DNA of 64,000 nucleotides from Escherichia coli (GCF_013315695.1 NZ_CP054353.1), one strand, 5' to 3'; positions 54,670 to 57,052 are shown, numbered from the stretch's first letter. The notes: generated by a model from the letters alone, not told the origin. Program-made: numbers and translations.

Positions 54670-55075
54670 TACCACCTCTTAAAAAAATGCCCACATAGTG
54701 TAGTGCGGAGCGCATGTTGGGTAAACAGAGTGTTAATGAGAAAATATTACAGAGGAGAATAGTTTGTGTGTCAGGTATGTTTATTTTGCATTCATAAAAT
54801 GAATGCTCTATATGTTGAAAAAATTATTCTTAAAGCTAAATAGTTTTACATCAAAAGTAATAATATTATTTCTTGATTGCTATGTGCATTTTTTATCTTG
54901 CGAACATGCTATTTTTATCTCACTAAATAAACGATTTGGTGACATCGATGATAATGTTTCAGGTTAAATGTGTGCTTATTACTTGGGCCTTTATTGTACT
55001 GTATTTATTCATTAAATGGATGTTTGGTGGTTAATTATCATGGAAATATATGACAGAGAGAGCATAAAGGTATAC

Positions 55076-56011
55076 ATGTTAACTAAAAGAATATTATTTT
55101 CTTTAATGCTAATAGTTTCACCATGCGTGGTGGCAAGCGAGAAAGCGCATGAATTGTATGACAGCATATACGGTGGTCAACCTGCGCCCGATGTTATAAA
55201 TAGACTGCATAAAATGGCTGAATTGGGAGATGTCGACGCGCAGAGCCTGTTAGGCTGGGAATATTATCAGCCTCGCTTTGATACCAAACCTGATGTTCAG
55301 GAAGCGATTAAATGGTTTGAGTTAGCCGCTAAACACGGTGATAGAGAAGCTCCGTTAGCGCTGGGGAGTATCTACTACGACGGTGAGCTGGTGCGGGTGG
55401 ATTATGCCAAAGCGTATGCACTATTTAATCAGGCCGCGCAATACGGTGTGAATTTAGCATGGTCCAGGTTGGGCATGATGTACGCCAATGGTCAGTATGT
55501 TGAGGTCGATTGTAAGAAAGCGAAGGAATATCTTGATAAAGGTGTCCACATTTATGGTGGTCCGGAAGACTTTCTGGCTACATGTCGAAAAGACATGATT
55601 GACAGAAAAATGGTTGACGATACGTTACCCGTGATCACGGTTACCCGTTCTGGGATGCGGGATAATTTTTTAGATAAAGGTTTTTCCTGCATGGATAGCC
55701 TCTTCGCCACCACCAATAAATTAGGCGAAGTGGCCAATCTTCGCGTGACATTCAGCATTCGTAGCCCATCCGGTAAGGAGATTAACCAAACGGTTGGCTT
55801 CGCGCCTTTCGGTTTAAACCGGCTGAATATTAGCTTTACTGATTACATATTTGATTCATTTACCAGTAATTCGTCTCTAATTCTTTATAAACCGGAATTT
55901 GAGCGAAAATCTTGTGCAACTGTAAGGACCACAATCGTTGCCGCAACGGCAACCATTAACGGCAAGGATGTGGAGTTGCTGAAAGCGGGGGCAATTGAAC
56001 AAAAGTGGTAA
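55076..56011 (+). CDS. Secreted Sel1-repeat (SLR/TPR-like) protein with an uncharacterised C-terminal domain
   Basis: RBS AAAGG 6 bp upstream of ATG 55076; signal peptide MLTKRILFSLMLIVSPCVVA; repeated ...A..W...AA..G...A...LG..YY.G... Sel1 motifs; not part of the K-12 yajR-cyoE junction as I recall it. Confidence 0.7.
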   Translation: MLTKRILFSLMLIVSPCVVASEKAHELYDSIYGGQPAPDVINRLHKMAELGDVDAQSLLGWEYYQPRFDTKPDVQEAIKWFELAAKHGDREAPLALGSIYYDGELVRVDYAKAYALFNQAAQYGVNLAWSRLGMMYANGQYVEVDCKKAKEYLDKGVHIYGGPEDFLATCRKDMIDRKMVDDTLPVITVTRSGMRDNFLDKGFSCMDSLFATTNKLGEVANLRVTFSIRSPSGKEINQTVGFAPFGLNRLNISFTDYIFDSFTSNSSLILYKPEFERKSCATVRTTIVAATATINGKDVELLKAGAIEQKW

Positions 56012-56066
56012 CGCTGCTCAGTCCCCGGCTGAGGCAAAACTAGCCCTGGCCGGAGGCGATAATAAT

Positions 56067-56609
56067 CTAAGCCGCGAGAATATGCTGAATCGCTAAAAAC
56101 ATCGGTACAGCACCGAAAACATTGGGCCTCGCTGAAAGCTGAACAAAGCCGAGGCGAGTATAAAAGTTAATGGCGGCAGGGTCAGCATCAAGATAAACCC
56201 CTTTAATTGGTAATGCACGGTGAATTATTTTTACATGTTCAAAAAAATCACATAGTAGGTCCTGACCAAAGCCCCGCTTTTGATATTTCCGCGCTACCCC
56301 TAACATGACTAATCTGACAACACCAATCTCTGAAGGTTGTGAACCCTGAAGGACGCCAGAAACGCGTTGTTTTTCCAGCGAATATGCCGTAAAAGTACAG
56401 ATGCCAATCAGTTCACCACTTTGTCTGTCAATAAGAGCTTTAGCAGCACAGTCGCTATTACGCACACTTTTCTTTAGCGATGCGCGTACAAATTTATCGA
56501 TAACAGGGTTACCGCAATCAAACTGTTTTTGCCCAGGATAAGTAATATCAGACTGATAATTACAGGAGAGGACTATGGGCAGAGTAATCTCTTCATGCTT
56601 GTCGACCAT
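56067..56609 (-). CDS. GNAT-family acetyltransferase toxin (TacT/AtaT/ItaT-like type II toxin)
   Basis: 180-aa ORF with N-terminal FDCG motif (QKQFDCGNPVIDKF), cf. QRFDCGEEALN remembered from AtaT; GNAT acetyl-CoA signature (RGFGQDLLCDFFE); immediately downstream of and overlapping a DUF1778-type antitoxin. Confidence 0.75.
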   Translation of the reverse strand: MVDKHEEITLPIVLSCNYQSDITYPGQKQFDCGNPVIDKFVRASLKKSVRNSDCAAKALIDRQSGELIGICTFTAYSLEKQRVSGVLQGSQPSEIGVVRLVMLGVARKYQKRGFGQDLLCDFFEHVKIIHRALPIKGVYLDADPAAINFYTRLGFVQLSARPNVFGAVPMFLAIQHILAA

Positions 56610-56904
56610 CGCTGTTTTTCCTTTTCATTAACGCCTTGAGGGCGAGCGTCGGTTGAGCAGGTTCAGCGATGAGTTGGTTCATCAGTTCCCAGCTTTGATT
56701 CGAAAGCTCACGGCGACGTTGGTTATCAAGCACACTTTCGGCGCGTTCCATAGCTGCGCTCAAAATAAAAGCGCTTAAATCTACCCCAACGGCTTGCGCA
56801 GCTTCACGAAGTTTGTTTTTGGCGTCGGGACTGGTTTTGAGTTCAACCCGCGCATTTTTCAGCGTTTTATCGATATCGGGTAGAGCGACTGTTTTTCCAG
56901 GCAT
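56593..56904 (-). CDS. DUF1778 (RHH) antitoxin partner of the GNAT toxin (TacA/AtaR-like)
   Basis: 103-aa protein from MPGKTVALPDIDKTLKNARVELKTSPDAKNKLREAAQAVGVDLSAFILSAAMERAE...; RBS AGAGG upstream of ATG at 56904; ORF track start at 56970 is probably over-extended. Confidence 0.7.
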   Translation of the reverse strand: MPGKTVALPDIDKTLKNARVELKTSPDAKNKLREAAQAVGVDLSAFILSAAMERAESVLDNQRRRELSNQSWELMNQLIAEPAQPTLALKALMKRKNSDGRQA

Positions 56905-57052
56905 TATGACCTCTTTGATTAACTGAATGAAATCGTAGGGAGTCGATCTCATGCATAATACGGCTATCAACCGTGTGATTAATTTATGTGCATATGCTCA
57001 CTCTGTCAAGAGATACGGTTATTAGCCGTATCTCTGATCTCAGACAATAAAA

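Follow-up and report, generated by a model that had tools for sequence, protein, structure and literature searches.

An accessory Escherichia coli gene between yajR and cyoE encodes a predicted exported protein that joins Sel1 repeats to an IrmA-like domain

We analysed a stretch of 64,000 nucleotides from an Escherichia coli chromosome (GCF_013315695.1, NZ_CP054353.1), read along one strand and referred to here as the window, in which the gene order runs thiI-yajL-panE-yajQ-yajR, a 2.3-kb segment, and then cyoEDCBA. The segment consists of a gene for a Sel1-repeat protein on the plus strand and, on the minus strand, genes for a GNAT toxin and a TacA-family antitoxin. The subject of this work is the Sel1 gene, at positions 55076-56011 on the plus strand, whose product is predicted to carry behind its Sel1 repeats a C-terminal domain with the fold of IrmA (interleukin receptor mimic protein A). 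The open reading frame (ORF) is a real gene: it encodes 311 amino acids followed by a stop codon and is base-for-base the RefSeq coding sequence WP_001571021.1 in a 100% identical genome, where it bears the label "tetratricopeptide repeat protein". The ORF list also offers an upstream ATG at 55016. We preferred the start at 55076 because an AAAGG Shine-Dalgarno-like site lies ahead of it (55066-55070), because the homologues all start there, and because the signal peptide is then N-terminal. The features are collected in Table 1.

Table 1. Positions of the Sel1 gene's parts and of adjacent features in the window.
Feature	Position	Strand	Evidence
Sec-type signal peptide (residues 1-20), with a predicted signal peptidase I cut after VVA	55076..55135	+	sequence reading
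Sel1-like repeat alpha-solenoid, residues 21-180	55136..55615	+	Pfam, AlphaFold2, Foldseek
Predicted IrmA-like beta-sandwich domain, residues 181-311	55616..56008	+	conserved cysteine pair Cys205/Cys280 and motifs
Stop codon TAA	56009..56011	+	sequence
itaT, GNAT toxin	56067..56609	-	PDB 7BYY, E 1.3e-115; Pfam GNAT domains
itaR, TacA-family antitoxin	56593..56904	-	Pfam PF08681, E 1.1e-17; RefSeq annotation
AT-rich intergenic region between divergent yajR and Sel1 gene	54676..55075	.	GC profile, alignments

Searches of Pfam, NCBIfam and the PDB with the protein sequence returned nothing at threshold beyond about residue 170, and single-sequence and profile searches of the same collections with the C-terminal domain itself were equally without a match at threshold; in the profile search of the PDB, IrmA was unlisted even at E <= 10. 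The AlphaFold2 model of this domain is an all-beta sandwich with a predicted local distance difference test score (pLDDT) of 82.6. The beta domain proper begins near residue 181 and spans about 130 residues, and in the monomer model the last strand folds back so that the sandwich is closed within one chain. By two methods, the best structural match of the domain was IrmA (PDB 5EK5), with a fibronectin-III-like beta-sandwich in the model as in 5EK5, and IrmA chains were the only two Foldseek matches at E <= 0.001. We regard the assignment of the IrmA fold to this domain as solid for a predicted model. The full-length model has a pLDDT of 86.1 and a predicted template modelling score of 0.83, the latter being consistent with a fixed arrangement of the Sel1 half and the C-terminal domain.

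Residues 163-311 were used in an exhaustive HMMER search of 1.84 billion cluster representatives, which retrieved only 23 proteins at E <= 0.001. Short fragments were set aside, as were P0049 and P0053, two long repetitive proteins matched over short stretches only; in all the others the domain follows Sel1 repeats. The family alignment (A2) shows conservation of TNKLGEVANLRV, FxPFGxN and AATATINGK and of two cysteines, Cys205 and Cys280, each at least 90% conserved across the 23 members. Twelve of these 23 listed the Pfam model of IrmA, PF18673, and no other family was listed by more than two; the best member reached E 9.2e-6, while P0022 scored 22.0 bits over profile positions 15-102 of 109 and P0046 scored 16.9 bits. 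When A2 was compared with an alignment of IrmA using hhalign, the E value was 8.6e-4, and Cys205 and Cys280 fell on Cys21 and Cys80, which form the disulfide of IrmA (PMC4807369). The IrmA sequence was taken from CFT073; against a single IrmA sequence, hhalign gave an E value of 0.075 and a probability of 0.75%. On this evidence the C-terminal domain is probably homologous to IrmA.

The likeness to IrmA (c1275 of CFT073) extends to several features. Both domains are fibronectin-III-like beta-sandwiches of similar size, both proteins start with an N-terminal signal peptide, each domain holds a single cysteine pair that aligns with the other, and motifs common to the two are FG after strand 4 and C..V.T..I..AT...NG. 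The two also differ. IrmA stands alone, as a protein of about 150 residues encoded on mobile islands downstream of agn43-yeeR, whereas the window protein is a 311-residue fusion at a fixed chromosomal site. IrmA is acidic, with an isoelectric point (pI) of 4.7, in contrast to a pI of 8.0 here and a range of 4.7 to 10 in the family, and it is regulated by OxyR, whereas a search for the OxyR-type consensus site found none within the window. The hinge and tail of IrmA (SLPLSVFDPQDYHP...LLITVSG) make a domain-swapped dimer and appear to have no counterpart in the C-terminal domain; the hhalign alignment stops before the hinge, and about 15 residues follow the NG motif here, as against about 28 in IrmA. 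As a separate observation, the island PAI-serX of CFT073 carries about 11 kb upstream of irmA a gene for a 378-residue SEL1-like protein that is nearly all repeats (L003:24724-25860), and a 180-residue gene comes after it.

The N-terminal half belongs to the Sel1 family, whose tandem alpha/alpha units are each about 36 residues long, with a Pfam PF08238 score of 63.9 bits against a cut-off of 30.7 in three stretches. We placed the three repeats by eye at about residues 54-157; Pfam prints the best stretch only (54-89). N-terminal to them is a cap helix, and by eye one helix of a fourth, partial repeat lies on that side; a linker helix carrying the conserved Cys170 spans residues 166-178. The AlphaFold2 model is a right-handed alpha-solenoid in which most of residues 40-160 exceed a pLDDT of 90. 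Over about 145 alignment columns, Foldseek matched this half to 6ORK, 6OK3, SEL1L, LpnE, LceB and EsiB, with E values of roughly 1e-7 to 1e-6. A sequence search of the PDB returned 25 Sel1-repeat chains at E <= 0.03, headed by EsiB/c5321 (4BWR; residues 42-146, E 3.5e-39) and continuing with Sel1-repeat proteins of Oxalobacter, Legionella and Helicobacter and with SEL1L. Over residues of about 26-170, the sequence and fold matches in the PDB were Sel1-repeat proteins without exception, and Foldseek found no solved structure spanning both this half and the C-terminal domain.

Invariant residues in the homologue alignment form three clusters, one in the last repeat (MYxNGQxVxxDCxKAxxY), one in the linker helix (C170, D173, R177) with Leu-Pro 184-185 just after it, and one in the first strands of the beta-sandwich. 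The number of recognised Sel1 repeats varies from three to six among relatives of 283 to 598 residues. Across the family it is the motifs of the C-terminal domain, the last repeat and the linker that are best conserved, and the proposal in the original prediction that any function resides in the C-terminal domain is plausible.

The N-terminus reads as a Sec-type signal peptide, with a basic n-region (MLTKR), the hydrophobic core ILFSLMLIVSPCVV (mean Kyte-Doolittle value 2.6) and a small-x-small cleavage site between VVA and SE. Fifteen homologues all share Ala20 at position -1, and pLDDT is below 50 for residues 1-19 only. A lipoprotein reading was rejected because Cys17 is not conserved and a lipobox is absent. 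After removal of the signal peptide the mature protein would have a mass of about 32.6 kDa and contains exactly four cysteines (C146, C170, C205 and C280), all invariant or nearly so across the family; C146 and C170 are invariant in the homologue alignment. Four conserved cysteines argue for two disulfides and for a location outside the cytoplasm, and we consider that C146-C170 and C205-C280 probably form. These results agree with the original prediction on the signal peptide and make its count of three or four Sel1 repeats a fair one. Its distinct C-terminal domain without a threshold match was likewise confirmed, as a well-folded rather than disordered region. Its view that this domain lacks a recognisable assignment did not hold, given the best match to IrmA by two methods, the sub-threshold PF18673 hits and the aligned cysteines.

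We consider it likely that the protein is a disulfide-bonded, non-enzymatic, Sec-exported binding protein, composed of a Sel1 solenoid and an IrmA-fold sandwich and acting outside the cytoplasm. It would cross the inner membrane by the Sec pathway and lose residues 1-20 to signal peptidase I. Of the two disulfides that would then form, C146-C170 would join the linker helix with the last Sel1 repeat and C205-C280 would lie inside the C-terminal domain, so that the mature protein would comprise a short Sel1-like alpha-solenoid and a closed IrmA-type beta-sandwich. It would act by binding, either in the periplasm or after release, as with IrmA, which is present in culture supernatant and binds the human cytokines interleukin (IL)-2, IL-4 and IL-10 in vitro (PMC4807369). 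The module that appears constant across the family joins the last repeat and linker helix to the IrmA-like domain and is the probable recognition unit, with the N-terminal solenoid of three to six repeats probably serving as an adaptor or variable extension. We propose binding because no catalytic signature was detected in the protein. Searches found no conserved neighbouring gene among the distant relatives, and the protein therefore probably acts alone. The gene itself, its conservation and selection, domain composition, fold assignment, distribution and synteny are results of the analysis; export, disulfide formation, binding and the compartment, periplasm or released, are what we infer as most likely.

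Other Sel1 solenoids that match the N-terminal half, at E values of 1e-22 to 4e-3, are HcpB/HcpC (1KLX, 1OUV), LpnE (6DEH), LceB (8SXQ) and AlgK (3E4B). These proteins bear signal peptides or are secreted, and they bind partners rather than act as catalysts; the Hcp proteins carry disulfides. They differ from the window protein in having no C-terminal immunoglobulin-like or IrmA-like domain and in their repeat numbers, partners and loci.

Several points weigh against an exported binding protein with an IrmA-like domain. The window protein itself scored only 12.7 bits against PF18673 (E 0.12), below the cut-off of 25, and the hhalign probability against the IrmA alignment was 23.5%. With a narrow hidden Markov model (HMM) of IrmA built by us from 19 sequences and searched in both directions, the C-terminal domains scored like shuffled sequences, so that we do not claim proof of homology at the sequence level. 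The weak sequence signal and this null result mean that convergence on a common beta-sandwich could also account for the likeness. The signal peptide and the disulfides were read from the sequence rather than called by a dedicated predictor, and a binding role would be the default expectation for two non-catalytic folds. Upstream of the gene, a promoter scan gave sites no commoner than in shuffled sequence, and a search for expression data on the Sel1 gene found none.

The original prediction allowed that this might be a common core gene of uninformative function. It is instead an accessory gene: of 5426 complete E. coli genomes, 1371 carry it, always between yajR and cyoE, and 4053 have that site uninterrupted and empty. 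Only these two states were seen in the yajR-cyoE interval (window positions of about 54760-57040), with no third state or other insertion; the empty site is a 148-bp gap (L002:2396-2543), and of the 1373 genomes that match, 1367 do so over 80% or more of the complete three-gene segment. Carriers include the commensal HS, E. coli B (ATCC 11303), Shiga toxin-producing E. coli (STEC) O121, IAI39, CE10 and SMS-3-5, and the empty site was found in K-12, O157 and the uropathogenic E. coli (UPEC) strain 536. The window allele is that of IAI39, CE10 and SMS-3-5, which we take to belong to phylogroup F. BL21(DE3) would carry the gene too, by inference from its virtually identical itaRT pair (PMC6125619). 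In Shigella sonnei the gene is recorded solely as a C-terminal fragment (P0014, 377 member sequences) that starts with the foreign sequence PSYTKSVSWQHH at about residue 131, which suggests that this copy was disrupted by an insertion element.

Outside E. coli, this position is also filled in E. albertii, in a cryptic Escherichia clade that includes Escherichia sp. E4694, and in Pseudocitrobacter. E. albertii and one Pseudocitrobacter-like contig have the Sel1 gene without the toxin-antitoxin pair, identified below as ItaRT; in E. albertii a 325-residue ORF with no Pfam match lies in its place between the Sel1 gene and cyoE (L017:4048-5025). E4694 and Pseudocitrobacter do carry ItaRT, the trio adjoining cyoE, and have just upstream a long-form paralogue of 494-499 residues with its own IrmA-like C-terminal domain (L018:1491-2990 and L010:3946-5430, respectively). 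E. coli and E. albertii lack exactly this long form, and in them the short form now follows directly on the long form's upstream region. More distant members of the family occur in the plant-associated Affinibrenneria, in Stenotrophomonas and Achromobacter, and in E. fergusonii. The E. fergusonii member (P0184, P0052) is a divergent Sel1 and IrmA-like protein of 283 residues with about 30% identity in the C-terminal domain; short fragments make up many of its database entries, perhaps as a result of decay. In 100,044 species-representative genomes, a pattern scan located four loci only, with a strict pattern that misses divergent copies.

In pairwise comparisons, the ratio of nonsynonymous to synonymous divergence (dN/dS) of the Sel1 gene was 0.2-0.3 within Escherichia and 0.12-0.13 against Pseudocitrobacter, whereas that of its neighbours was 0.03-0.07. 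The gene is under purifying selection that is looser than in the neighbouring core genes, whose dN/dS it exceeds 3-10 times. Synonymous divergence (dS) from E. albertii was 0.39 for the Sel1 gene, 0.29 for cyoE and 0.24 for yajR, all of the same order. A recently acquired island was considered in view of the low GC content and rejected as the principal explanation, given these dS values and the filled position in E. albertii, the cryptic clade and Pseudocitrobacter. Because the position is common to the cryptic clades, E. albertii and Pseudocitrobacter, a long-resident gene that was lost repeatedly is a better explanation than one acquired recently.

The original prediction also pointed to host interaction, and one explanation of the protein is that it is released as a decoy that dampens mucosal immunity, its IrmA-like domain binding cytokines and its EsiB-like solenoid binding secretory immunoglobulin A (SIgA) or another host protein. 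For both halves the closest characterised relatives are indeed E. coli proteins with reported binding to immune proteins of the host, EsiB, the best sequence match in the PDB, being a SIgA binder (PMC3735183) and IrmA, the best fold match, an interleukin binder found in supernatant. EsiB and the window protein also have in common a Sel1-like solenoid and an accessory gene in E. coli. However, EsiB has 11 repeats and no beta domain, in contrast to three or four repeats and an IrmA-like domain here, and its SIgA-binding peptide (244-VLFSQSAEQGNSIAQFR-260) does not appear to be specifically conserved: by eye 7 of 17 residues are identical in the corresponding ALFNQAAQYGVNLAWSR, E251 is replaced by Q, and the matches in this segment lie at generic Sel1-repeat consensus positions. 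On the IrmA side, the acidic surface is not kept, and the hinge and tail behind the domain-swapped, receptor-like dimer appear to be missing. The window allele occurs in IAI39 and CE10, which are strains of extraintestinal pathogenic E. coli (ExPEC), and the gene evolves faster than its neighbours, but unlike EsiB it is not enriched in ExPEC: it is present in HS, a commensal, in E. coli B, in STEC O121 and, by the inference given above, in BL21(DE3), absent from UPEC 536, O157 and K-12, apparently disrupted in S. sonnei, and represented by relatives in Stenotrophomonas, Achromobacter and Affinibrenneria. Host interaction is thus unsupported by the distribution, and we consider a decoy function unlikely.

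Some periplasmic Sel1-repeat proteins are said to be immunity proteins of type VI phospholipase effectors. The protein might in the same way be an orphan periplasmic immunity or protective protein that binds and blocks an effector, whether an interbacterial toxin or an envelope-targeting protein. Its predicted periplasmic, non-enzymatic nature, its patchy presence and absence, the tandem long and short paralogues of E4694 and Pseudocitrobacter, its raised dN/dS and the lack of a conserved operon partner in distant relatives would all suit such a role. Yet beside the copies examined there is no effector, type VI secretion system, contact-dependent inhibition or bacteriocin gene, Pfam, NCBIfam and the PDB gave no sequence link to a known immunity family, and the stable synteny beside cyoE does not resemble a variable immunity array; we judge this explanation quite improbable. 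That the protein works with the ItaRT toxin-antitoxin pair as a third part of one functional module is very improbable indeed. The three genes travel together in E. coli, as the near-complete coverage of the segment shows, and the same trio adjoins cyoE in E4694 and Pseudocitrobacter. Against this, the Sel1 gene is convergent with the module, and its product is assigned to a different compartment from ItaT, which acts on cytoplasmic aminoacyl-tRNA (PMC6125619). E. albertii and the Pseudocitrobacter-like contig have the gene without ItaRT, no toxin-antitoxin genes adjoin the distant relatives, and the genes have diverged differently, with dS values against E4694 of 0.08 for itaT (window positions 56070-56609) and 0.35 for the Sel1 gene (L018, L016). 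An exported binding protein that acts alone is the reading we prefer.

Both folds are known, and the fusion of Sel1 repeats with this domain represents a fused, divergent branch of the IrmA fold that is unannotated by Pfam. A literature search for IrmA, Sel1 and E. coli together found no paper, supplementary files and subscription journals lying outside the search, and searches by yajR, cyoE and Sel1 or by guessed locus tags around itaRT in HS, BL21 and REL606 found no literature on the gene. The finding itself shows no new mechanism. It gives a structural identity and a testable hypothesis to a "hypothetical" exported protein that about 25% of E. coli strains, including E. coli B, carry and whose C-terminal half resembles IrmA, a vaccine-candidate protein, and it widens the IrmA fold beyond small mobile-island proteins to a deeper fused family in enterobacteria, Stenotrophomonas and Achromobacter. 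The clean empty and filled states of the locus, together with the longer paralogue in some relatives, offer a natural experiment. Among the best 120 hits listed, stand-alone IrmA proteins are at least 57% identical to one another. A speculative idea, to which we give little credence, is that the Sel1 and IrmA-fold proteins are an old, sparse proteobacterial family of exported binding proteins, that the stand-alone, mobile IrmA of pathogenic E. coli is a derived offshoot of it, and that the E. coli fusion, carried by about a quarter of strains with commensals and E. coli B among them, uses Sel1 repeats and beta-sandwich jointly as a composite site to bind a protein of host or microbial origin. 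If so, "cytokine receptor mimicry" would become one case of a general ligand-binding module.

The pair of genes on the minus strand of the segment is the published ItaRT module, as identified by the match of the toxin to 7BYY. ItaRT was described from E. coli HS and BL21(DE3), and ItaT is a GNAT toxin that acetylates Ile-tRNA (PMC6125619). itaT is convergent with the Sel1 gene and lies outside the latter's transcription unit. The unequal divergence of itaT and the Sel1 gene from E4694 suggests that the yajR-cyoE segment has a mosaic or recombinant history.

The region upstream of the Sel1 gene presumably holds its promoter. GC content falls to 30% at 54700-55150, whereas the flanks have 52-56%. 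With an upstream region of such low GC, silencing by H-NS or Hha is plausible. The intergenic sequence aligns with the upstream region of the long-form paralogue in Escherichia sp. E4694 at 77% identity and with E. albertii at 84% identity.
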